From Armatimonadota bacterium (GTDB lineage: Bacteria > Armatimonadota > UBA5829 > DSUL01): a stretch of 64,000 bases of DNA. The notes under the pieces are model-generated. The model was not told the DNA's origin. It searched no databases and was given only the letters and a program-made list of their open reading frames with translations. A program made the position numbers and the translations under genes. The stretch spans positions 64,001 through 128,000 of the forward strand of contig JBDHZC010000005.1 in assembly GCA_039811685.1 (NCBI GenBank), in the 5' to 3' direction. Of this stretch, positions 6,612-17,852 are shown piece after piece (the first letter of the stretch is position 1; every line of letters starts with the position of its first letter).

Positions 6612-6768
6612 TGCAGTTACTGTTCGTCCGGGAGGAAAGCTGTCCTGCTGGTGAGCCGAGTCTTGCGGGCGCGGAGTTTTGCCAGTTCTCCTTCGCCTGC
6701 AGATGCCCAAAGGAGGGCCCGCAGACATGAAACTATCAGCCTGTCCCATGAGGCGGGGGAAGTCCTCG

Positions 6769-7674
6769 ATGAAAAAACACTTAGTCACGCTTATGTTGGC
6801 TATGGCCCTTGCCGTTTCCTTCGCAGGCGCTGCGCCTGTGTTCGCGGCAGATAAGACCGTTGAGACTACGTCTAGCCCAGCGCCGGACGCCCTTGAGCTG
6901 CGAACGGCGTCGGACGCGGACGTGGTGACGATGCTCTCGGATGAACGCGCGATGTACCGCGCCTTTTTTGCGACGGAAGCCGGCGGTCGCGGCTTGACCG
7001 CGGCAAAGCCCCGGTTGAAGCATCTACTCTCAGACCCGGACGAGTTGGTCCGGGTGGAGGCTGCGGGAGCTCTGCTGCGGCTTACTGAGCGCTCCGGTGT
7101 CCCCGTGCTCCGGGCGGCCCTGTCCAACGAGGCGAGCAGGAGCAGACTGACTGCGGCCCGGTACCTGTCTCTAGTCGCAGACAAGCAGGCCGTGGCTGTT
7201 CTGCAGAACTATCTCACGAGCAAGTTATCTTTTGAGCGAGACACCGCCGTGCACGCCCTTGCAGCTCTGAAGGATGACTCGATCGCCTATGCCGCGCTGG
7301 TGGCCGGGTTGCAGGATGAAAACGATCTGGTACGCCAATCGGCCATTTATCTGCTGGGTGGACGCACGGGCGAACGCTCCACCCGGATGCTGCGTGAGAT
7401 CCTCCAAACAAGTCAGGTCCAGATGGAAAGAGGGATGGCAATCTCGTCGTTGGAGCGGCTCGGCACTCCTGCCGTGGTACTATCCATCATAGACGCTCTG
7501 GCGGACGAAAGTCCGGTCGTTAGTGTGGCAGCGCGAAGAGCTCTGCTGAAGCTGACAAGGCGTATCGGTGCGCCGGAGGGGGTCGGGCTGGCGCAGGCCG
7601 AGGATTGGCGCGCCTGGTGGGCGCAACACAGGCAGGAGTATAAGGAACACGGCCTGCCAGGGGCGGGAGGCTGA
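6769..7674 (+). CDS. Exported HEAT/PBS-lyase repeat protein (array gene 1)
   Basis: Signal peptide MKKHLVTLMLAMALAVSFAGA; HEAT motifs such as LSDPDELVRVEAAGALL; C-terminal WRAWWAQH. Confidence 0.85.
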   Translation: MKKHLVTLMLAMALAVSFAGAAPVFAADKTVETTSSPAPDALELRTASDADVVTMLSDERAMYRAFFATEAGGRGLTAAKPRLKHLLSDPDELVRVEAAGALLRLTERSGVPVLRAALSNEASRSRLTAARYLSLVADKQAVAVLQNYLTSKLSFERDTAVHALAALKDDSIAYAALVAGLQDENDLVRQSAIYLLGGRTGERSTRMLREILQTSQVQMERGMAISSLERLGTPAVVLSIIDALADESPVVSVAARRALLKLTRRIGAPEGVGLAQAEDWRAWWAQHRQEYKEHGLPGAGG

Positions 7675-7835
7675 AGAACCCCCAGCGTCCGGCGGAATGA
7701 CCATTTCATGAACAGCGCAGGCTACCATAGCAGCTTCTAGTTCGCGGCGTCACGTGGAGATGAAGGAATCTACGGCCCGGCGGGTCTATTCAGTTGGGCA
7801 GCGAACGGAAGTTGCCTGTGCCGGAAGCTTTCAGG

Positions 7836-7946
7836 GCCGATTGGGAGCAGTGGTGGGCCGAGAACCAGAGCCAGTTCCCGCCTGGCGCCAAGATCAAAGC
7901 TAAAGCTGCGGCCTTCGAACCAGCCGAACCCGCAACGGAGTGGTAG
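7836..7946 (+). repeat. Orphan copy of the 3' tail of the HEAT gene at 14301-15221
   Basis: Encodes DWEQWWAENQSQFPPGAKIKAK, matching the end of that gene. Confidence 0.85.
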
Positions 7947-8046
7947 CGGTGGAACAGCGCTTCATCCGCGCAGAGGAGCGCATCTGCGCATGGACTTGGC
8001 GAATCTTTCACCCACTGGCTCCAGGTGGGGATACCTGGAGAGATGT
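7944..8046. repeat. Structured 103-bp intergenic repeat, copy R1
   Basis: TAGCGGNGGAACAGCGCTTCATCC...CTCCAGGTGGGGA(C/T)ACCTGGAGAGATGT; seven copies, three hairpins. Confidence 0.95.
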
Positions 8047-8191
8047 GATGCAAGACGATGCCTTGAGTGGGTTCTTTACGCCGACGGGTCAGTCCGGCTA
8101 CTACCTCTACAAGAAGCAGTCGCCCAGCGACGTGCGGCTGGAAGGAAGAGAAGTTCCGTACCCGTAGCGCCTATCGGCGAAAGAGGATGAA

Positions 8192-9184
8192 ATGTTTCGA
8201 CAGTTGATCTGGTTTGTCACAGCAGCGCTCCCTTTGCTCGCACTTGTGCTCGCCGCGGCCGCGTGCGGTGCAAGCGATATTCCGGTCGCTGTGCCCGCCC
8301 CCGGAGAGCCGCCTGTTCTGTTCGCTGCCGAGTCAGCAGGTGTGCTCTACACGGCAACTCTGGAGGCGGACAAGCGCGTTGCGGTCATCGCCGCCCTGCC
8401 GCTTGATCGAGTTGCGGAAAAACGGACTTACACAGTGCCGGTACCCGCTCTCGAATACGAAAGTTTCCAGCGGCTCCGCTGGAGACTGGGCAGCGGATAC
8501 GCGTGGCTGCTGCCAACGGTGCTGACGAATGGTGGCTTACGCCGCTACCCGATGTATCGCATTCCGCGCAGCGAACTCGACAAACTCCTCCACGGCAGTA
8601 ACGAAGCCAGCGGAAGCGGCTTGAAAGACATGTGGTTTCCGCCGGGCTTTGCGCCACTCACACGCGCGGACGATGAATCCGGGGTGAAAGGGCAGCCGAT
8701 CTACGGAGACTTCTACCCTATCTCTACATCAGCTATCCGGCAGTTCATTTTGCAGGGCAGCGTACTGAGCGTCTGGGACTACATCGGAAACCCAGACGCC
8801 AAGCGGCCTGGGGGAAGTGACAGAGACCTCACTCCCGTGGCTGACCGAGAGCGGTACTTCAACTGGGTCCGCGTGGTGAAGCTGAAGGCGCCTTTTACGG
8901 AGTCCTTCCACGCGTTTCCTCAGAAGGGCGGGTTCCTGCTGGTTACGGACTCCGGCGCGCTCTACTCCATCACGGGCATCAGCACCGGTACTCCAGCGAT
9001 ACGCAGGGTGGATCTGGGCGACGAGCAGATCAGGGTTATCGTGCAGACGGAGGGTGGATCGGCCATTGCGGCGACGCAGACGAAGCGCCTCGATCTGTCC
9101 TCGGCGCCGAAGCTGTCGCCGCTTTCGCATCCGCACAGCTCACCGACGGCTGCGGCCCTTGAGCTGGCCAAAGCGCTGAAGTAG
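8192..9184 (+). CDS. Putative lipoprotein of unknown function, family X copy 1
   Basis: AGAGGA RBS; lipobox-like VLAAAAC; near-identical to 13020-14012; ends LAKALK. Confidence 0.85.
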   Translation: MFRQLIWFVTAALPLLALVLAAAACGASDIPVAVPAPGEPPVLFAAESAGVLYTATLEADKRVAVIAALPLDRVAEKRTYTVPVPALEYESFQRLRWRLGSGYAWLLPTVLTNGGLRRYPMYRIPRSELDKLLHGSNEASGSGLKDMWFPPGFAPLTRADDESGVKGQPIYGDFYPISTSAIRQFILQGSVLSVWDYIGNPDAKRPGGSDRDLTPVADRERYFNWVRVVKLKAPFTESFHAFPQKGGFLLVTDSGALYSITGISTGTPAIRRVDLGDEQIRVIVQTEGGSAIAATQTKRLDLSSAPKLSPLSHPHSSPTAAALELAKALK

Positions 9185-9414
9185 TAGCGGGGTCGGCCGC
9201 GCTCAGTGAAGGAAGTCAGCCATCGCGGAGTCAAAGAATGGAGAAACAAGTAGCTCAGGCGCAGCAAACCGTTCTGACTCTTGAAGCTGCGACAGCTACC
9301 TGCGCCGATTGGAAGCAGTGGTGGGCCGAGAACCAGAGCCAGTTTCAGTCCGGCACCAGGAGCAAAGCTGAAGCTGCGGCCTTCGAACCAGCCGAACCCG
9401 CAACGGAGCAGTAG
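9185..9414 (+). repeat. Linker repeat: ~80-bp spacer plus degenerate HEAT-gene 3' tail
   Basis: Similar to 12539-12774 and 16382-16611; tail matches 15070-15221 with a frameshift. Confidence 0.85.
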
Positions 9415-9514
9415 CGGAGGAACAGCGCTTCATCCGCGCAGGTGTCCTCACCTGCGCATAGAATTGGCGAATCTTTCACCCACTGGCTCCAGGTGGGGAC
9501 ATCTGGAGAGATGT
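9412..9514. repeat. Structured 103-bp repeat, copy R2
   Basis: Ungapped match to R1; hairpin-1 variant GCGCAGGTG-TCCT-CACCTGCGC. Confidence 0.95.
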
Positions 9515-9617
9515 AAATGGGGGCCCTTCTGCCAGACTGGGACGATGATGATCCCAATCTGAACGGGGCGGAGAACGAGGACCTGGACCAGGTGACACGC
9601 GTCGAATGAGGAGACCA

Positions 9618-11090
9618 ATGGTTTACAATGGAGTTATGGTCGTCGCCCGGCAGAAAGGCCCTGCCGGCCACTATGCAGCTGTCCTCGCGATAGCCGCATT
9701 CGTGTCCGCAGTGTGTGCTGCACAAGCGGCGTGCGAACTGCCAACTCACGGTTGGGAGTTCACAGTCGCAGCGGAGCACACGCCGGCTGTAGCGATCAGT
9801 AGAGACGGCTCGCGCATCGCCGTTTCCGACTGGGCGGCCATCTATCTACTTGACCGGCAGGGCAAGGTGCTGTGGACCGCGAAGGCGCCACCGAAGAGTG
9901 GCTTCGGAGTGACCGCCATCTCTGACACCGGCCATCGTGTGCTGTGCTGGAAGATTCGGCGCCTCCCAAGTGTGGACAACGAGGATATCGACTACAACGC
10001 GGTGCTCTTCAACGGCGCCAACGGGCAGGTGCTGACCGAGATCGAGCTGGACGGGGGCCGAGTGCCGACGGCGCTGTCTGGCGATGGACGGTATATTCTG
10101 GCGGGCTATCCGCCGGACGGCCTGGGCCTGGAAATGGCAGCACAGCCTGATCCCGCCAACTACCTCATGCTCTTAGATGACACCGGCAAGACCGTCTGGC
10201 GCTCAGACAAGCTTGCCCAAAAGCCCGTTGTCGGAGCGGCTTACGGCTTTTTATCCCACACCGGTTCCTATGCGCTGCTCGGCGCAAAAGACCGCCTGAA
10301 CCTTGTGACCATCGGCGGCTATCACCTTTTCGACATTGCACTGACGTCAGACCCTGCCGTTTCCGCCGACGCTGACTTGATCATGATGGGCGCCACACCC
10401 GTGTTGTCCACAGACGTTCAGAAGTATGAGACCGCATGGCCTGTTGTCGCGCCACAGGGTGAGCAAGAGCCGCAGACATGGGGCCATGAGTCCTTTGGCT
10501 TCAAGACGTACACTGCAGCCGCGGCGCTCGCCTTGGTCCGCGTCGGGGATGTGGCCGAGGAGTCGCCTCCCCCGAACCGGCGGCATCCCTTTGCGGAGCT
10601 GGTGTGGGCGCATGGCGAGATCTGGGCGGGAAACCGGGAACGAGTGCTGGATGCGCCGAAGCTTCCGCCCATTCCCGCCGGTAATCCTGGACGGCGCGGG
10701 GTTGCCTACGGATCGGCTGGGCTGCTGGCAATTGTCGACCACACGCTGTTGGCGGCAGAGCTTGGGCAGGAGCACGCGGTGAAGTTGCTACGCCTGCCAG
10801 GGCTGGGGATTGTGAAAAGGGTCGGCGTGTCCAGCAACGCTTCCCGCGCCTACACTCTCGTCGCCGTCCCCGCTGGGTCCGATCTAGTGGGACGCGGCCC
10901 CAGCACGGGTTCGGCGGCTTCCGCTCTTGTCTGCACCGTCTGGGACAGGTCTGCCAAACCTGTTGCAACAATGCCTCTTTCAGAGCAGGAGAGGCCCTTC
11001 GCGATAGCCTTCTCCCACGCAGGCGATCTCCTGATCCTAGCGTGGAAGGGTAAGGTGCAGGCGTTCGAGATCGGAGGCGTCGCCAGGTAA
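9618..11090 (+). CDS. Exported beta-propeller (WD40/PQQ-like) protein
   Basis: GAGGAG RBS before ATG 9618; signal-like hydrophobic stretch; blade motifs VAISRDGSRIAVS, ALSGDGRYILAG, AFSHAGDLLILA. Confidence 0.75.
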   Translation: MVYNGVMVVARQKGPAGHYAAVLAIAAFVSAVCAAQAACELPTHGWEFTVAAEHTPAVAISRDGSRIAVSDWAAIYLLDRQGKVLWTAKAPPKSGFGVTAISDTGHRVLCWKIRRLPSVDNEDIDYNAVLFNGANGQVLTEIELDGGRVPTALSGDGRYILAGYPPDGLGLEMAAQPDPANYLMLLDDTGKTVWRSDKLAQKPVVGAAYGFLSHTGSYALLGAKDRLNLVTIGGYHLFDIALTSDPAVSADADLIMMGATPVLSTDVQKYETAWPVVAPQGEQEPQTWGHESFGFKTYTAAAALALVRVGDVAEESPPPNRRHPFAELVWAHGEIWAGNRERVLDAPKLPPIPAGNPGRRGVAYGSAGLLAIVDHTLLAAELGQEHAVKLLRLPGLGIVKRVGVSSNASRAYTLVAVPAGSDLVGRGPSTGSAASALVCTVWDRSAKPVATMPLSEQERPFAIAFSHAGDLLILAWKGKVQAFEIGGVAR

Positions 11091-11293
11091 CCCGGGTCGA
11101 GAACCCAATGCAGTTGACTTACTACGCCGACTGGAACTCAGAGACCGTAGCGATGGCCGGACTGCTTGCCGGAGGGGACGGCCAGTGCGGCTCCGCCTCA
11201 GGCGCAGCACGACGGCCTGGAGGGCCCGGCCTAGCAGCAGATGGTCGCCTGTCTCACGGATATGAAGACCGCGCTGGGGTGTCCCCAGGCTAT

Positions 11294-11381
11294 GCTTCAT
11301 CCGCGCAGGTGTCCTCACCTGCGCATAGAATTGGCGAGTCCTTCGCCCACTGGCTCCAGATGGGGACACCTGGAGAGATGT
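11294..11381. repeat. Structured repeat, copy R3 (88-bp core, 5' flank absent)
   Basis: Starts at GCTTCATCC and ends GAGATGT; all three hairpins present. Confidence 0.93.
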
Positions 11382-11455
11382 AAAGCTCGACCTGATATCG
11401 AGTGACGTAGCCGGCAGGGAAGCCTCGTATCCATAGCGTTAGAAGGAGTCACTAG

Positions 11456-12538
11456 ATGAAGATCACCGCTGTTGCCAAAGCTCTTCTTGTCTGTTGGTTG
11501 GCGGTCGACGCCGTCAGCCCTGCCGTCGCCGAGAGCTATCTATTCAGTGAAGAGACGAAGCACCCCCTGATCGTCCAGCGCCCGCTGACAGGCATACTGG
11601 TTGATGAGACTATGTACACTCTCTCGATCGCGCCAGAGTCGGGCTATGCGCCTGTACTGACGGAGACGCCGATGACCGCGCTTGCCGCGCCTGTCAGCTA
11701 CGCTCTCACCGCAGTAGCCGACGCCAGACGCCCGGCCTTTCCTGTTCACTGGTCGCTGCGTGGAGGTTTTGTTTGGACGTTGACTGAGTCCGATACGCCG
11801 CTGAGTGGCATAGTGCCGTTTTACTTCAGTCTTCAGCGGACTGCGCTGACTGGCCTGGAGCCGTGTGCCGCAGCCACCACGCATGTGGTCAAGCCCGGTA
11901 CTGTTGCCGATGTGTGGCACGCTCATCTGGCTAAGTGGGAGCGTGTCGCTTTCACTGAGCCCGAGACGCTGAACGACGCGACGCGGGCCGCCCGGCCTCC
12001 CGAGGTACCCTATCCTCTTGCCGCTATCGTGGTGACGGGACCGGTGACCGTCCAGCTTTTCCAGTTGACCGCCCCACATATGATGGGATGGGAGTACCGT
12101 GGGCCGGAGAAGCCTCGGCGGTGGAAAGCCGCGTTTGGGCCGGGGATGGCGCCGATCTCTCCCGAGAGTCAGCGGGGCGTGCCTCTCAAGGAGCGTACTC
12201 ACTCCGGCGACTGGTGGCGCATAGGGATGTTCGACGTTCCCTTCAGCGAGGCCTAGGAAGTGGCCAAGGTCGAAGGTACCTACTACGCCGTGACACAGAG
12301 CGGAGAGGTTTTCTCTCTGGGCGACCTTACCGGGAAAGTAAAGAAGATCGACATAGGAGGCAGACGTGTGACGGCGATTCTGACGCTGGAGGAGAGCGGA
12401 AAGGTGTATCTTTGTTCGCATGAGGACTACGCGCCGCTGTCGGATTCGCCTGGATTCAAATCCATTCCTGGAGGACACCCAGACGTCACCAGATCGGCAA
12501 CGCAGTGCCTGCTGGACCTGGCGAAGGCGTTGAACTAG
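11456..12538 (+). pseudogene. Family X exported protein interrupted by an in-frame TAG at 12254-12256
   Basis: ORFs 11456-12256 and 12260-12538 share a frame; PFSEA*EV aligns with PFAEPFEV of 15380-16381; AAGGAG RBS and signal peptide. Confidence 0.8.
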
Positions 12539-12774
12539 CGCAGGGACTGCCATCCGCACGCAGTGAAGGAAGGCAGCCATCGCGGAGTCAAAGAATCGAG
12601 AAATGAGCGGCTCAGGCGCAGTAAAGCGATCTGAATCTGAAGGCCGCGGAAGCTGCCAGGTCCGATTGGGAGCAGTGGCGGGCAGAGGACCAGAGCCAGT
12701 TTCAGTCCGGCACCAAGATCAAAGCTGAGGCTGGCGCACCCTCGATGTCGCCCGGCCCCGCGGCTCAGCCGTAG
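12539..12774 (+). repeat. Linker repeat: spacer plus HEAT-gene 3' tail
   Basis: Similar to 9185-9414 and 16382-16611. Confidence 0.85.
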
Positions 12775-12874
12775 CGGAGGAACAGCGCTTCATCCGTGCA
12801 GATGAGCGCATCTGCGCATAGAATTGGCGAATCTTTCACCCACTGGCTCCAGGTGGGGACACTTGGAGAGATGT
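12772..12874. repeat. Structured 103-bp repeat, copy R4
   Basis: Ungapped match to R1. Confidence 0.95.
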
Positions 12875-13019
12875 GATGCAAGACGATGCGTTGAGCGGGT
12901 TCTTTAGGCCGGCGGGTCAGTCCGGCTACTACCTCTACAAGAAGCAGTCGCCCAGCGATGTGCGGCTGCAAGATACTGAAGTTCCGTACCCGTAGCGCCT
13001 ATCGGCGAAAGAGGATGAA

Positions 13020-14012
13020 ATGTTTCGACAGTTGATCTGGTTTGTCACAGCAGCGCTCCCTTTGCTCGCACTTGTGCTCGCCGCGGCCGCGTGCGGTGCA
13101 AGCGATATTCCGGTCGCTGTGCCCGCCCCCGGAGAGCCGCCTGTTCTGTTCGCTGCCGAGTCAGCAGGTGTGCTCTACACGGCAACTCTGGAGGCGGACA
13201 AGCGCGTTGCGGTCATCGCCGCCCTGCCGCTTGATCGAGTTGCGGAAAAACGGACTTACACAGTGCCGGTACCCGCTCTCGAATACGAAAGTTTCCAGCG
13301 GCTCCGCTGGAGACTGGGCAGCGGATACGCGTGGCTGCTGCCAACGGTGCTGACGAATGGTGGCTTACGCCGCTACCCGATGTATCGCATTCCGCGCAGC
13401 GAACTCGACAAACTCCTCCACGGCAGTAACGAAGCCAGCGGAAGCGGCTTGAAAGACATGTGGTTTCCGCCGGGCTTTGCGCCACTCACACGCGCGGACG
13501 ATGAATCCGGGGTGAAAGGGCAGCCGATCTACGGAGACTTCTACCCTATCTCTACATCAGCTATCCGGCAGTTCATTTTGCAGGGCAGCGTACTGAGCGT
13601 CTGGGACTACCGCGGAAACCCAGACGCCAAGCGGCCTGCGGAAAGTGACAGAGACCTCACTCCCGTGGCTGACCGAGAGCATTACTTCGACTGGGTCCGC
13701 GTGGTGAAGCTGGAGGCGCCTTTCACGGAGTCCTTCCACGCGTTTCCTCAGAAGGGCGGGTTCCTGCTGGTTACGGACTCCGGCGCGCTCTACTCCGTCG
13801 CGGGCATCAGCACCGGCACTCCAGCGATACGCAGGGTGGATCTGGGCGACGAGCAGATCAGAGTTATCGTGCAGACGGAGGGTGGATCGGCCATTGCGGC
13901 GACGCAGACGAAGCGCCTCGAGCTGTCCTCGGCGCCGAAGCTGTCGCCGCTTTCGCATCCGCACAGCTCACCGACGGCTGCGGCCCTCGATCTGGCCAAA
14001 GCGCTGAAGTAG
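13020..14012 (+). CDS. Putative lipoprotein of unknown function, family X copy 2
   Basis: Duplicate of 8192-9184 at an offset of 4828 bp; differences confined to the 3' part. Confidence 0.85.
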   Translation: MFRQLIWFVTAALPLLALVLAAAACGASDIPVAVPAPGEPPVLFAAESAGVLYTATLEADKRVAVIAALPLDRVAEKRTYTVPVPALEYESFQRLRWRLGSGYAWLLPTVLTNGGLRRYPMYRIPRSELDKLLHGSNEASGSGLKDMWFPPGFAPLTRADDESGVKGQPIYGDFYPISTSAIRQFILQGSVLSVWDYRGNPDAKRPAESDRDLTPVADREHYFDWVRVVKLEAPFTESFHAFPQKGGFLLVTDSGALYSVAGISTGTPAIRRVDLGDEQIRVIVQTEGGSAIAATQTKRLELSSAPKLSPLSHPHSSPTAAALDLAKALK

Positions 14013-14115
14013 TAGCGGGGGAACAGCGCTTCATCCGCGCAGATGAGCTCATCTGCGCAAAGCATTGGCGAGTCCTTCACCCACTGGCTCCAGGTGGGGA
14101 CACCTGGAGAGATGT
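14013..14115. repeat. Structured 103-bp repeat, copy R5
   Basis: Perfect hairpins GCGCAGATG-AGCT-CATCTGCGC and CTCCAGGTG-GGGA-CACCTGGAG. Confidence 0.95.
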
Positions 14116-14300
14116 AAAGCGACGTTCGTGGCGGCAATCAACCAGGAGAGGATCGCGGGTGATAAGGATTACGAGGAGCAGGCCTACGGCGCGGAGGCCG
14201 TGTGCGAAATGGACCTGCTGGAGGAGACGTGCGCGTACGTCACGCCGCCATGTGAGGCGTGTCCATGACCATGGTATGCAGTCCTAGAACGGAGGTCGTT

Positions 14301-15221
14301 TTGAAACTCTTTATTGTGCTACTGCTTGCTGCTGCTCTTTGTGTTACGGCAATATCCGAGGGTGCGTCGGCCGAGCGCACGTGTGCCGCCACCAGGTATT
14401 ACCGCTCCACGGTTTCTGAGTTGGTCGGGCTGCTTTCGAGTGGGCTGTCTATCGACCGGTTCGACGCGGCTCTCGAACTCGGGCGGCGAGGCGATGTGTC
14501 AGTGATCCCTGCAATGAAGGCTGCGCTTGGCGATCCGGAGCGTTTCGTGCGGATGCGGATAGCTGCTGCGCTGCTGGATCTCGGCGATCGAAGCGGCGTG
14601 GAGGTACTTCACGAAGTTGTTACGTCGGGTGAGCCCTACTGGAGTCTGGCAGCGGCGGAGGTGCTTGCCCATCACGGTGACACCTTTGGCCGTGATCTCA
14701 TCAGGAAGGCTCACTCTTCGAGCAGTTGGGTCGCTCGCTCCTCAGCCTTAAGGGCCTCGGCCGACCTTCCGGAGGGGCCGCCCTACGACGCCGTGGCTGC
14801 CGGACTGGAGGACTCGCAGCAGATTGTCCGCTTGACCGCCCTGAGGGCTGCTCAAATGTGCCATGACCCCCGGGTGAAGGATCTGGTCCGCAAGGCGTTG
14901 TCTTCTTCCGATACGCTTCTGAGGGCGCGCGCGGCCATCATAATTGCGGAGGAGGGGCAGCCCGCAGACATTCCGGCTCTGATAGCGCTGTTGACAGCTC
15001 CGGATGGGGTTACCCGTTCTGCCGTTCTCAGAGCACTGCAGTCGCTGACGGGGCGTGCTTCTCCGTCGAAAACCGTTCTGACTCTTAAGGCTGCGACAGC
15101 TATCCGCGCTGAGTGGGAGCAGTGGTGGGCCGAGAACCAGAGCCAGTTCCCGCCTGGTACCAAGATCAAAGCTGAGGCTGGCGCACCCTCGGTGTCGCCC
15201 GGACCCGCGGCTCAGCCGTAG
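14301..15221 (+). CDS. Exported HEAT/PBS-lyase repeat protein
   Basis: GGAGG RBS before TTG 14301; signal peptide; ALGDPERFVRMRIAAALLDLGD repeats; WEQWWAEN tail. Confidence 0.85.
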   Translation: MKLFIVLLLAAALCVTAISEGASAERTCAATRYYRSTVSELVGLLSSGLSIDRFDAALELGRRGDVSVIPAMKAALGDPERFVRMRIAAALLDLGDRSGVEVLHEVVTSGEPYWSLAAAEVLAHHGDTFGRDLIRKAHSSSSWVARSSALRASADLPEGPPYDAVAAGLEDSQQIVRLTALRAAQMCHDPRVKDLVRKALSSSDTLLRARAAIIIAEEGQPADIPALIALLTAPDGVTRSAVLRALQSLTGRASPSKTVLTLKAATAIRAEWEQWWAENQSQFPPGTKIKAEAGAPSVSPGPAAQP

Positions 15222-15321
15222 CGGAGGAACAGCGCTTCATCCGTGCAGAGGAGCGCATCTGCGCATGGACTTGGCGAATCTTTCGCCCACTGGCTCCAGA
15301 TGGGGACACCTGGAGAGATGT
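15219..15321. repeat. Structured 103-bp repeat, copy R6
   Basis: Ungapped match to R1; begins on the HEAT gene stop codon. Confidence 0.95.
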
Positions 15322-15379
15322 AAGTCGCGAATACTGAGCGCAACTGAGATGCACAATGAGAAGCAAAGGACACAGTAAA

Positions 15380-16381
15380 ATGAGGGTACGGAAACGGCCT
15401 CTTCTTCTTCTCTTCGGAGTCCTACTTGTCACCACTCCACCAGCTGTCGGGCAGCCGTCTCCTGGTGTTCGCCTACGTCCTGGTCAAAGCCAACTGGTGC
15501 AGACTCCGCTGACGGCCTCTTCACGTGCGGGCGTTCTTTACACAGTGATCATTGACAAAGGGCGTGCCTTGCTGCGGCAGACGCCTCTTGATACTTCATC
15601 GCCCGTTCGCTTCGCAAGTCTGGAGTCCTCCAGCCGTTTGACCGGTATCGGCCCGATGTTTCCAGCGCATTGGGGACTTGCAGACGGCTTCCTTTGGTCG
15701 CTGGTTCTTGAAGAAGGAGACGCATACTGGGCCAGCCCACATCTAAGCCGCTTCGCGCTGGAGGACATGCGTCTCGTGGACCCGGACAACGCCCTTCCGC
15801 CTCGAGGCGCGCACCGCACAAGGCGCACAGAAGTCCCCCCGTATCCTCTCCTGGATGCCATCGCGGAAGGGTCAAACCGTGACTTACTGGTCTTCCCCGC
15901 GCTTCAGCCCCTGTCGCGCAAATCCGTCCGCCTGTTCGTGCTGCAGCCGCCCGTGCTGACGGTATGGGTGAACGAAGACCCCGCGCTTTTCGCACCACGA
16001 ACGTCCGGACGCAGCGTCGAAGGACGCGTGAAGGAAAAGGGCAGGATTGAGAACTGGTTGAAGGTTGCGTCTATCAGTGTTCCTTTCGCCGAGCCTTTCG
16101 AAGTTGTTGGGTGCGGTTCCGTCTGCTACTTCATCACAGGAAGCGGGGACCTCTATGCAGATAAAGATCTGAAGGCAAGTCCGCAGAAGATCGACACAGG
16201 AGGCAGGCGCGTGACGGCGATTCTGACGCTGGAGGAGAGCGGAAAGGTGTATCTTTGTTCGCACGAGGACTACGCGCCGCTGTCGGATTCGCCTGGATTC
16301 AAATCCATTCCTGGAGGTCACCCAGGCGTCACCAGGTCGGCAACGCAGTGCCTGCTGGACCTGGCCAAAGCGCTGAAGTAG
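15380..16381 (+). CDS. Family X exported protein of unknown function
   Basis: AAGGA RBS; signal peptide; shares AGVLYT, PF.E.F, T.SG.LY and LDLAKAL motifs with other family X genes. Confidence 0.82.
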   Translation: MRVRKRPLLLLFGVLLVTTPPAVGQPSPGVRLRPGQSQLVQTPLTASSRAGVLYTVIIDKGRALLRQTPLDTSSPVRFASLESSSRLTGIGPMFPAHWGLADGFLWSLVLEEGDAYWASPHLSRFALEDMRLVDPDNALPPRGAHRTRRTEVPPYPLLDAIAEGSNRDLLVFPALQPLSRKSVRLFVLQPPVLTVWVNEDPALFAPRTSGRSVEGRVKEKGRIENWLKVASISVPFAEPFEVVGCGSVCYFITGSGDLYADKDLKASPQKIDTGGRRVTAILTLEESGKVYLCSHEDYAPLSDSPGFKSIPGGHPGVTRSATQCLLDLAKALK

Positions 16382-16611
16382 TAGCGGGGTCGGCCGCGCT
16401 CAGTGAAGGAAGTCAGCCATCGCGGAGTCAAAGCATGGAGAAACGAGCGGCTCAGGCGCAGCAAACCGTTCTGACTCTTAAAGCTGCGACAGCTATCCGC
16501 TCCGATTGGGAGCAGTGGTGGGCCGAGAACCAGAGCCAGTTCCCGCCTGGCGCCAAGATCAAAGCTGAGGCCGCACCCCCGGCGTCGCCCGGACCCGCGG
16601 CTCAGCCGTAG
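16382..16611 (+). repeat. Linker repeat: spacer plus HEAT-gene 3' tail
   Basis: Tail 16463-16611 near-identical to 15070-15221. Confidence 0.88.
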
Positions 16612-16711
16612 CGGTGGAACAGCGCTTCACCCGTGCAGAGGAGCGCATCTGCGCATTGAATTGGCGCATCTTTCGCCCACTGGCTCCAGGTGGGGACATC
16701 TGGAGAGATGT
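16609..16711. repeat. Structured 103-bp repeat, copy R7
   Basis: Ungapped match to R1. Confidence 0.95.
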
Positions 16712-16857
16712 AAACAAACAACGTGATGAAGAAGAAGCGTACTCCGAACAGGAGATGTGCGAGAGGCTTACGTTGGACGACTGGTGTACATTTGGTATCC
16801 ACGGGCCCTGCACGGCGTGCGATGATCTCAATGACTAGCAAGATGATGGAGGAAAGA

Positions 16858-17772
16858 ATGACGAAGATGGTAGCGCTGGTTCTAATCTGCGGGTGGTTCG
16901 GCTGGGGTGGTGTCTGTGCTGCGGGGCCGGCTACCCCTGTCACCGCCACAAATGGCTCAGCGACTCGTTCACCGGATTGTGACGAGGCGAGTGTCCCTGA
17001 ATTGATTGCCATCCTTCGTGAGCGTGGAACCTTTGCTGTCCGTGCAGCACAGCTCCTTGCGGATCGCCACGCGACGTCTGCAATTCCGGATCTCGCGCTG
17101 TTGTTGACGGATCCGAAAATCTCTCTGCGGATAAATGCGGCGCGTGCAATGGCGCTCCTGGGAGACCGGAGCGGGTTACCAGTGCTGCGGGCGGCGCTGA
17201 CAGAGGGTGACGATTTCCACGCCTCTATCGCGGCCGCTTTTCTGGCGCAGCTTGGCGACGACAGTGGGCGCGCGGTTTTGGAGAGGGAACTCAGTAGTCA
17301 AAACTGGATCGACCGGAGGCAGGCCCTGTACGCATTGGCGCTTCTTCCGGATGGTCTGTCTGATGTGGCTGTTGCAGCGGCTCTAGAGGACGAAAGGCCG
17401 GAGGTACAAAGAAGCGCGTTTCGTGTGGCCTGGAAAAATGCGTCTGATAGGGTGCGGGAGGTGTTGATTAAAAAGACACAGTCCCCGGATCCGCTTACCC
17501 GCTGGCGGGCGACTGAGGCCCTGTTTATGAGTAACCCGCACCGAAACGCAGAGATTGCTATTGGCATGATTACGGATCCGGACCGCCTCGTACAGGGACA
17601 AACATCCATGATGCTGGCGCATTTCTCCCGTGTGGCTGTGCCTCGGGTGAGCGGGTGGATGAGGAGTGCCGAGCGGGCAAGAGATCTCAAGCAGGCGTAT
17701 CTGGAGTGGCTGGCGGTTAACAGGGACGTGGCGTTCCCGCCAACCGAGCCGGCGCCGCCTGCACCGCAATAG
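16858..17772 (+). CDS. Exported HEAT/PBS-lyase repeat protein (last array gene)
   Basis: GGAGG RBS before ATG 16858; signal-like N-terminus; LLTDPKISLRINAARAMALLGDRSG repeats. Confidence 0.85.
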   Translation: MTKMVALVLICGWFGWGGVCAAGPATPVTATNGSATRSPDCDEASVPELIAILRERGTFAVRAAQLLADRHATSAIPDLALLLTDPKISLRINAARAMALLGDRSGLPVLRAALTEGDDFHASIAAAFLAQLGDDSGRAVLERELSSQNWIDRRQALYALALLPDGLSDVAVAAALEDERPEVQRSAFRVAWKNASDRVREVLIKKTQSPDPLTRWRATEALFMSNPHRNAEIAIGMITDPDRLVQGQTSMMLAHFSRVAVPRVSGWMRSAERARDLKQAYLEWLAVNRDVAFPPTEPAPPAPQ

Positions 17773-17820
17773 CAGCGGCTGCGAGCGGGCAAACGCTCAT
17801 TCAGTCGGAGATACGCACGC

Positions 17821-17852
17821 AAAAGTAAGGGGGCAGCCGGTTGGCCGCCCCC
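17821..17852 (-). terminator. Intrinsic terminator after the PEP-CTERM gene
   Basis: Minus strand GGGGGCGGCC-AACC-GGCTGCCCCC followed by TTACTTTT. Confidence 0.65.

Follow-up and report, generated by a model that had tools for sequence, protein, structure and literature searches.

REP-type repeats, probable gene-tail remnants and HEAT-repeat or family X genes in a tandem array of an Armatimonadota bacterium

Introduction

Rhs and CdiA loci carry orphan toxin-tail/immunity modules and polyimmunity loci. The array described here, at 6679-17772 of a 64,000-nt stretch of DNA (the window) from an Armatimonadota bacterium (GenBank assembly GCA_039811685.1, contig JBDHZC010000005.1, positions 64,001 to 128,000), is a co-oriented series in which seven copies of a repeat, E, are each followed by a short open frame, or stub, and then by a larger gene. 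Several described systems share parts with it. For polymorphic toxin systems, immunity proteins built of HEAT repeats have been described (Zhang et al. 2012, PMC3482391). The rAID-1 system (recombinase-associated acquired interbacterial defence) of the Bacteroidales consists of arrays in which the sequences between orphan immunity-type genes are repetitive and integron-like (Ross et al., bioRxiv 10.1101/471110). Finally, TnpAREP, named for the repetitive extragenic palindromic (REP) sequences, cleaves and recombines bacterial interspersed mosaic elements (BIMEs) in vitro (Ton-Hoang et al. 2012, PMC3333891). What, then, are the stubs that stand between repeat and gene in this array, and what is it about E that places them there?

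The array resembles orphan toxin-tail/immunity modules in what appear to be ends of 5'-truncated variable C-termini lying directly before their cognate genes, in tandem, and it resembles polymorphic toxins in having an intact relative with a constant body and a variable C-terminal region. It differs from Rhs and CdiA loci in that no main toxin gene is left in this genome, the remnants are just 5-50 codons long and include nothing of a conserved pre-toxin region, the array shows no toxin, RHS or secretion domain of a known kind, and the modules are bounded by a REP-type repeat. As in rAID-1, a repetitive intergenic sequence (here the seven copies of E) lies between immunity-type genes; unlike rAID-1, there is no XerD-like recombinase among the open reading frames (ORFs) around the array, its GC content is not skewed from that of the surroundings, no array gene matches a known immunity family, and the phylum is a different one.

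The explanation preferred here, to which we give about an even chance, is that the array is an island of orphan immunity-like genes whose toxin genes have been reduced to their last 5-50 codons. Each module would open with a composite REP-type E, continue with the little that is left of the 3' end of a partner gene, and close with an exported protein of binding type, whether a HEAT-repeat, a family X or a 494-aa protein, and the remnant and the gene would formerly have been an adjacent pair that was inherited, and sometimes duplicated, as one piece.

Stubs and the genes that follow them

The array is bounded by rpsO/pnp and by a convergent PEP-CTERM gene. It contains three HEAT-repeat genes (HEAT0, HEAT1 and HEAT2), four members of a family termed X (X1, X2, G341 and G266+s92) and one gene for a protein of 494 aa (G494), and signal-like hydrophobic N-terminal segments, as judged by eye, are present in the array proteins. 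All of its features lie on the plus strand, and the names of repeats (E1-E7) and stubs (st1-st7) run 5' to 3' along it. A first-pass annotation, made from the letters of the window, had placed seven stubs of 16-153 nt after the motif GAGATGT, each stopping just ahead of the next gene, and all seven are located as it described, with 121, 95, 55, 121, 153, 16 and 127 nt between the end of E and the stub stop. The stops fall 18-24 nt ahead of the start codon of the following gene, except in st2/G494 and st5/HEAT1, where stop and start overlap as ATGA. That the stubs occupy all three frames relative to the repeat is literally true (phases 1, 2, 1, 1, 0, 1 and 1), although five of the seven share one phase. 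Since the X1 and X2 cassettes are recent duplicates, the independent junctions number three X, two HEAT and one other; four of these six share a phase, for which our own binomial estimate gives a p of about 0.3.

The further claim that the type of stub tracks the family of the downstream gene holds at all seven junctions (four X, two HEAT and one other, with X1 and X2 as recent duplicates). Cys-rich stubs precede both of the stub-bearing HEAT cassettes: st5 (14116-14268) has four Cys, a possible GTG start at 14128 and a stop that overlaps the HEAT1 start, and st7 (16712-16838) likewise has four Cys, no start codon at the junction and a sole in-frame ATG at 16755. X-type stubs precede all four X cassettes: st1 (8047-8167) is a 39-codon ORF from ATG 8048, overlapping the TGA that follows the ATG of E; st3 (11382-11436) has no canonical start codon; st4 (12875-12995) is a copy of st1; and st6 (15322-15337), a 5-codon stub, is too short to assess. 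The remaining stub, st2 (9515-9609), is an acidic 30-codon ORF from ATG 9517 whose stop overlaps the start of G494. Such tracking would follow if each remnant and its gene were once an adjacent pair and were inherited together.

For the HEAT type an intact form of such a pair survives in a sister genus, as a 365-aa secreted protein followed by a HEAT gene. In a genome from another genus of the same family (G004; the window's own genome, of 3.4 Mb, is G000), a 365-aa ORF ends 57 nt upstream of a co-oriented HEAT homolog that carries a Trp-rich C-terminal (W) module. The 365-aa protein is rich in Cys, starts with a signal-like segment and has a weak match to PKD. Its end is what the two Cys-rich stubs resemble: the alignment covers residues 334-364 for st7 (E 3e-4) and 336-365 for st5 (E 0.009), in both cases running to the end of the protein, and the four Cys are invariant across all three sequences. 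The two stubs also match each other (E 0.003-0.005; 39% identity, with all four Cys kept). A profile of this tail finds strong matches at just four places in 3 of 53 class genomes, namely two in G000, one in G004 and one in a sister species, G002, and no stub has a further copy elsewhere in its genome. The idea of the first-pass annotation that the stubs are truncated gene 3' ends is thus borne out by homology for st5 and st7 (two of the seven), whereas for st1, st3 and st4 the codon pattern alone hints at it; its view of them as the C-termini of cognate partner genes likewise stands for the HEAT type, where the tail belongs to a protein encoded upstream of a HEAT homolog. It had named RHS/YD or other secreted-toxin genes as the parents to look for, and the 365-aa protein is not of the RHS/YD kind; its suggestion of zincin-like toxin domains is not supported either: the 365-aa protein is no zincin, and an HExxH ORF at a metagenome locus discussed below (L020) matches neither it nor st5. 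The partner-tail reading is right for the HEAT type and plausible for the other stub types.

Whether the tails were captured, as that annotation supposed, is another matter, and truncation in place fits equally well. The sister species has the same kind of stub by plain deletion: G002 keeps the last 43 codons of the 365-aa gene (72% identical), followed by a HEAT gene with frameshifts and stops, and what has been deleted extends from the beginning of a reductase gene upstream to a point inside the 365-aa gene. At this scar (L017, contig C83, 1003-1413, minus strand) there is a 40-codon start of a reductase with a twin-arginine translocation (TAT) signal, and no E element.

Alleles and predicted binding of the HEAT partner

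The 365-aa protein occurs in 2 of 401 phylum genomes and in one related cluster within a collection of 5.8 billion proteins. In an alignment of 13 of the 15 members listed for this cluster of 20, all those spanning the region carry one of two C-terminal alleles. Compared pairwise, the two forms show five differences in the preceding 259 aa (about 98% identical, by our own count) and then switch abruptly to about 53% identity over the last 89 aa. A constant body with a swapped C-terminal region and an adjacent downstream gene is, in its layout, the architecture of a polymorphic toxin and its immunity gene, and it is from this architecture that toxicity would be read.

A complex of the G004 HEAT protein (residues 25-303) with its partner (residues 130-365) was modelled in three runs with three controls. 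The interaction prediction score from aligned errors (ipSAE) was 0.69 (runs 0.67, 0.70 and 0.69) against 0.00 for the best control, a score that is model confidence and not a measurement; the mark used for ipSAE is reached by 51 of 78 solved complexes and by 2 of 108 mismatched pairs. The runs had no less than 66% of their contacts in common, and the partner's predicted local distance difference test (pLDDT) score was at least 74. Among the partner residues in the predicted interface are 323-347, the stretch to which the stubs are homologous. HEAT variants linked to the second allele differ from the G004 form at residues 145-148, 151-152, 191 and 195, of which 145-148 form a predicted contact patch; this pairing of HEAT form with C-terminal allele is indirect, being drawn from the same longest-contig size only. 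The model supports binding of the partner's C-terminal region by the HEAT protein.

Stubs as possible small genes

The same stubs could be working small genes, that is leader or partner peptides translated from signals in the last hairpin of E (GGAG and an ATG with a stop right behind it) and coupled to the gene that comes next; they might descend from longer genes and be kept, for example, as HEAT-binding peptides. Some may indeed be translated, since a start codon stands close to the point where the repeat ends: an ATG lies 1-3 nt past it in st1, st4 and st2, and a GTG 12 nt in for st5, an arrangement that counts against mere remnants, and the ATGA overlaps of st2 with G494 and of st5 with HEAT1 are in keeping with coupling. 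By contrast, st3, st6 and st7 offer no usable start where they join E. Frames that stay open for 40-50 codons are in themselves nothing unusual, and the stubs vary from 5 to 50 codons, with G341 intact behind the one of 5 codons.

Codon comparisons point both ways. Between the last 12 aligned codons of st1 and st3 there are three identical, six synonymous and three non-synonymous, so that this frame was, or still is, read as protein, the codon differences being mostly synonymous. This bias and the retention of all four Cys in st5 and st7 fit peptides that would still be translated and selected, again a point that sits less well with mere remnants. Between st1 and st4, however, the 40 codons including the stop comprise 32 that are the same, 3 synonymous and 5 non-synonymous. 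The location of the stub-homologous stretch of the long protein within the predicted HEAT interface would suit a binding peptide; against this, in G004 that same sequence ends a 365-aa protein, and st5 and st7 meet E in different phases. The start-stop of E may be incidental, since REP copies outside the array carry GGAGGGATG without a following stop. Overall we regard working small genes as unlikely for the stubs as a class, and note that some stubs may have been kept as translated leaders, which is compatible with their being remnants of partner genes.

A coding role for E itself, as a leader of the kind found with ribosomally synthesised and post-translationally modified peptides, was rejected, the differences between copies being compensatory in the hairpin rather than synonymous. 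One frame of E is open in E1, E5, E6 and E7, sharing the phase of the stub in all of these but E5, and is interrupted by TAG in E2-E4; the peptide it encodes has no match to the 365-aa protein. Recoding of TAG, prompted by these codons and by the in-frame TAG in G266/s92, was also rejected, as 697 of 1983 long ORFs end in TAG.

The repeat and its REP-type origin

E is about 106 nt long and occurs as seven direct copies (7939-8051, 9407-9519, 11274-11386, 12767-12879, 14008-14120, 15214-15326 and 16604-16716) that are 73-92% identical to the reference copy. As annotated features they are E1 (7944-8049), a composite REP-like repeat scoring 126 bits with a covariance model; E2 (9412-9517), at 131 bits; E3 (11279-11384), at 99 bits, with its 5' part replaced and with an ORF, s91 (11108-11383), extending into it; E4 (12772-12877); E5 (14013-14118), which directly abuts the X2 stop; E6 (15219-15324); and E7 (16609-16714). 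The fold of the repeat has two hairpins of 9 bp, in which the copies show one compensatory pair. GAGATGT is in register in all seven copies and is followed by TAA or TGA (RA); similarity among them ends abruptly at one base, after GAGATGT and RA, where six different sequences join. The motif by itself is not rare (10 in the window against 7.3 expected). Six of the seven copies start GTAGCGG (7944-7949 in E1), the TAG being the stop of the upstream ORF, a W module or X2. Escherichia coli REPs likewise have GTAG as their conserved tetranucleotide, but it lies there at the hairpin foot, unlike in E. Rfam gave no match in the window at gathering scores and, at E <= 1, none on E, with two sub-threshold naRNA4 matches inside X1 and X2.

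Where does such a repeat come from? A pattern made of the second hairpin of E and GATG defines a dispersed family with 21 matches in the genome, 7 in the array and 14 elsewhere on contigs C1, C3, C5, C10 and C11, and a loop variant of the first hairpin recurs at C10 and C3. The dispersed copies and the seven copies of E alike lose similarity immediately past GATG, the one hint that a transposase may cut at a fixed position next to the hairpin. On contig C3 (184560-185276; L049, 2061-2777) lies a RAYT-like (REP-associated tyrosine transposase) ORF of 238 aa, with hairpins on both sides, 78 nt upstream and about 480 nt downstream; the upstream one differs from the second hairpin of E at 2 of 27 bases by our own count. 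This ORF matches NCBIfam REP_Tyr_transpos over the full model length with 76.5 bits (E 1.9e-21), just under the cut-off of 80 bits, and its Pfam score of 20.2 is likewise below the cut-off of 23, shortfalls that count against a firm assignment; it also matches the E. coli TnpArep structure (PDB 4er8) with E 0.002 and is the only Y1-transposase-like match of the genome. A repeat-rich, apparently non-coding region at C10:1000-3500 (L048) holds five of the REP hairpin copies; it also contains a repeat of 265 nt, whose copies at 1002-1266 and 1397-1661 are 99% identical, and one of 89 nt that is present three times.

Judged by these likenesses, E is built from REP-type hairpins and its fixed right end is the REP 3' end. 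The resemblance to REP/BIME elements lies in short palindromic hairpins in many copies, a single Y1-transposase-like gene flanked by hairpins, and a composite of two hairpins in intergenic positions within an operon-like array; the differences are that the copy number is low (21 pattern matches), the two hairpins of E are direct and not inverted, and the 106-nt composite is found at one locus only, with each copy abutting a truncated gene. The hairpin family was not found in the five other genomes of the same taxonomic family, and E therefore arose in this lineage, long after the HEAT paralogs and the stubs diverged.

An integron-like or rAID-like system, with E as a recombinase site that captures cassettes of toxin tail and immunity gene, would account for unrelated cassettes (X, HEAT and G494) being divided by a homogeneous repeat (85-94%) when the HEAT paralogs are only about 30% identical, and for six different sequences joining E at one base; rAID-1 combines orphan immunity genes with integron-like intergenic repeats (10.1101/471110), and integron arrays share with this one the co-oriented cassettes and a sharply bounded, structured repeat about 100 nt long. 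Here, however, a Pfam scan of the array and its flanks, covering 16 large ORFs, turned up no recombinase, and the genome's two tyrosine recombinases (PF00589) are both on another contig, C2. There is no IntI near the array; E ends in GAGATGT and RA rather than in a GTTRRRY core, its two ends are not complementary, and attC core sites (RYYYAAC / GTTRRRY) are lacking; the cassettes, unlike those of integrons, bring their own ribosome-binding sites and gene remnants. The REP family to which the hairpins of E belong is dispersed and linked with a RAYT-like gene, and the DNA contigs of three metagenome studies showed no other cassette order. Capture by a recombinase is therefore highly improbable.

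On the preferred explanation, by which the stubs are remnants of partner genes, the constant breakpoint would be the 3' end of a REP hairpin of the family that flanks the single RAYT-like gene, and REP-associated cleavage or recombination, along with homologous exchange, would be the likely maker of both truncations and duplications. The constant cut at the REP 3' end suggests deletions or joins starting at the end of the element. Homologous exchange between copies of E and of the W module is evident from the mosaics of X1/X2 and of the G341 tail with s92.

Words of the array are present in sludge, wastewater and bioreactor metagenomes of 12 studies. The DNA contigs of three of these 12 studies carried the same cassettes with few or no differences, broke at the repeats and left some bins without cover, and no credible rearrangement was seen in them; a joint from 6902 to 14195 (run X10) was set aside, one side being only 21 letters long. 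In an RNA library (run X19), a contig matching 16712-16879 of the window begins at the first base past E7, with 8 unmatched letters before it. A strain variant, leftover adapter or an RNA whose 5' end lies at the boundary of E would each explain this. Further RNA contigs cover 9254-9428, 17021-17171 and 17490-17789.

Family X and the genes upstream of it

Family X is rare, with 35 matches at E <= 1e-3 among 1.84 billion representatives and none beyond G000 in 52 class genomes or in 400 phylum genomes. Four metagenome loci with X homologs were recovered (L019-L022). At L022 an X gene lies within about 14 nt after an ORF of at least 1131 aa, read as a surface protein, with weak PKD/Ig matches; at L019 two homologous gene-tail remnants (E 2e-7) each stand ahead of an X gene, one of which is truncated; at L020 the HExxH ORF precedes a HEAT-like gene and then an X fragment, whose protein is source-labelled as an Armatimonadota metagenome-assembled genome (MAG); and at L021 an X gene follows a folC-like gene. 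The pattern of gene tail plus X gene is, in these loci, one that recurs beyond the window. At L020 (842-2202) the HExxH ORF overlaps the start of the HEAT-like exported protein, and in a Planctomycetota MAG (L015, 340-2686) a weak X-like ORF is followed by a zincin-like gene.

For the X type, the claim that the stubs are partner tails found no parent by BLASTP, by hhalign or in a search among longer proteins. A kinship of st1 with tails of YYDPS type, seen by eye, was supported by neither BLASTP nor hhalign. The C-terminal part of the long L022 ORF gave a pLDDT of 32.5 in AlphaFold (single-sequence/shallow alignment), no hit in a PDB sequence search and no homologs among proteins of 192-613 aa; a protein atlas gave only a weak lead, transglutaminase-like at 0.80.

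Other features of the array

The first gene, HEAT0 (6679-7674, with a likely start near 6724), encodes an exported HEAT-repeat protein (Pfam HEAT_2, E 3e-31) and has neither a copy of E nor a stub upstream, where there is only rpsO on the opposite strand; rpsO beside pnp is also the sole synteny shared at the array site with G001 and G004. HEAT1 (14265-15221), an exported HEAT-repeat protein, ends in the W module, of which W58 (9238-9414) is a free-standing copy, 67% identical to the HEAT1 C-terminus; all copies of the module at E <= 1e-12 are inside the array. HEAT2 (16858-17772) is the last gene and is followed by a G+C-rich hairpin near 17830. The three HEAT paralogs show only about 30% identity among themselves. 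HEAT1 and HEAT2 have weak, far sub-threshold matches to NCBIfam TIGR02270 (HEAT-like, function unassigned; E 7e-8 and 3e-5).

X1 (8192-9184) is a family X exported protein of 330 aa for which no Pfam or NCBIfam family matched, and X2 (13020-14012) is its duplicate, with 97% amino acid identity. The two cassettes are 100% identical over 8200-8700, 91-98% beyond and 94% in the stub region, and the genes differ at 10 non-synonymous and 4 synonymous codons of 331, all outside the 500-nt identical block, a mosaic pattern consistent with recent gene conversion together with relaxed or diversifying selection. G341 (15356-16381), which matches X1 with E 5e-19, is a mosaic as well, its last 83 aa being 81% identical to s92 (94% at the DNA level) and the remainder 26% identical to G266. 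G266 and s92 (11456-12538) form a single family X gene interrupted by an in-frame TAG at 12254-12256, the family match spanning the stop (recorded as '1 TAG'); with its startless stub st3 this is probably a decaying module. G494 (9606-11090) encodes a 494-aa exported protein of no Pfam or NCBIfam family, and at E <= 1e-5 it has no homologs in the other 400 phylum genomes.

Toxin and immunity, or envelope proteins?

The proteins may have nothing to do with toxicity. They could be ordinary exported envelope proteins served by HEAT or X chaperones or anchors, in a paralog expansion that is decaying by REP-adjacent deletions. No toxin domain was recognised, the G004 pair has a housekeeping neighbourhood, after a TPR gene, the array has the GC content of its surroundings, and the deletion and broken HEAT gene of G002 show simple decay of a pair. 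On the other hand, pairs shaped by antagonism or by specificity typically show such a switch, from about 98% to about 53% at the C-terminus, with co-located HEAT changes; X, G494 and the 365-aa protein each have a rare or lineage-restricted occurrence; and the keeping of several diverged orphan binders without the protein they bind is hard to explain for a chaperone. We consider the envelope explanation a serious one, if on balance somewhat unlikely.

With toxins and antidotes as the preferred reading, the claim of toxin-immunity pairs is supported in part, by the architecture and by modelled binding, and the partner would be a putative toxin with the HEAT protein as its putative antidote. Several further results weigh against that reading, in addition to the reservations given with the model and the RAYT-like score. 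The 365-aa protein has no toxin domain in Pfam or NCBIfam, is known from a single genus and has no full-length copy in G000; AlphaFold (single-sequence/shallow alignment) gave no usable fold for it (pLDDT 36), and the protein atlas held nothing usable. The X-type stubs of the window match none of the metagenome tails (BLASTP; hhalign probability 0.13%), and no parent of st1 emerged from the search among longer proteins. A Pfam scan of the array's flanking genes found no secretion-system genes. As for the element, BLAST finds E only as the array copies in the 3.4-Mb genome and in none of 40 relatives, and with the covariance model nothing other than the array's seven copies, at 99-131 bits, exceeds 34 bits in 53 class genomes.

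Implications

A bolder extension can be drawn, in which a REP/RAYT system, and not an integrase, built and maintains an interbacterial-defence island. E would then be the breakpoint for toxin removal and for module duplication or reshuffling, and HEAT, X and G494 would be antidotes to unrecognised secreted toxins with swappable, Cys-bearing C-termini of about 90 aa, used by related sludge bacteria. The role given to RAYT here is a putative one, and the extension as a whole is improbable on present evidence.

To our knowledge, orphan-immunity islands are known mainly from gut Bacteroidales, and REP/BIME elements with their domesticated transposase have long been without an agreed function. If the island reading is correct, a two-allele secreted protein with its HEAT binder would add a candidate family of toxin and immunity proteins from a little-studied phylum common in wastewater plants, orphan-immunity islands would extend to another phylum and habitat, and REP/BIME elements and the domesticated transposase would be tied to the shaping of such an island.

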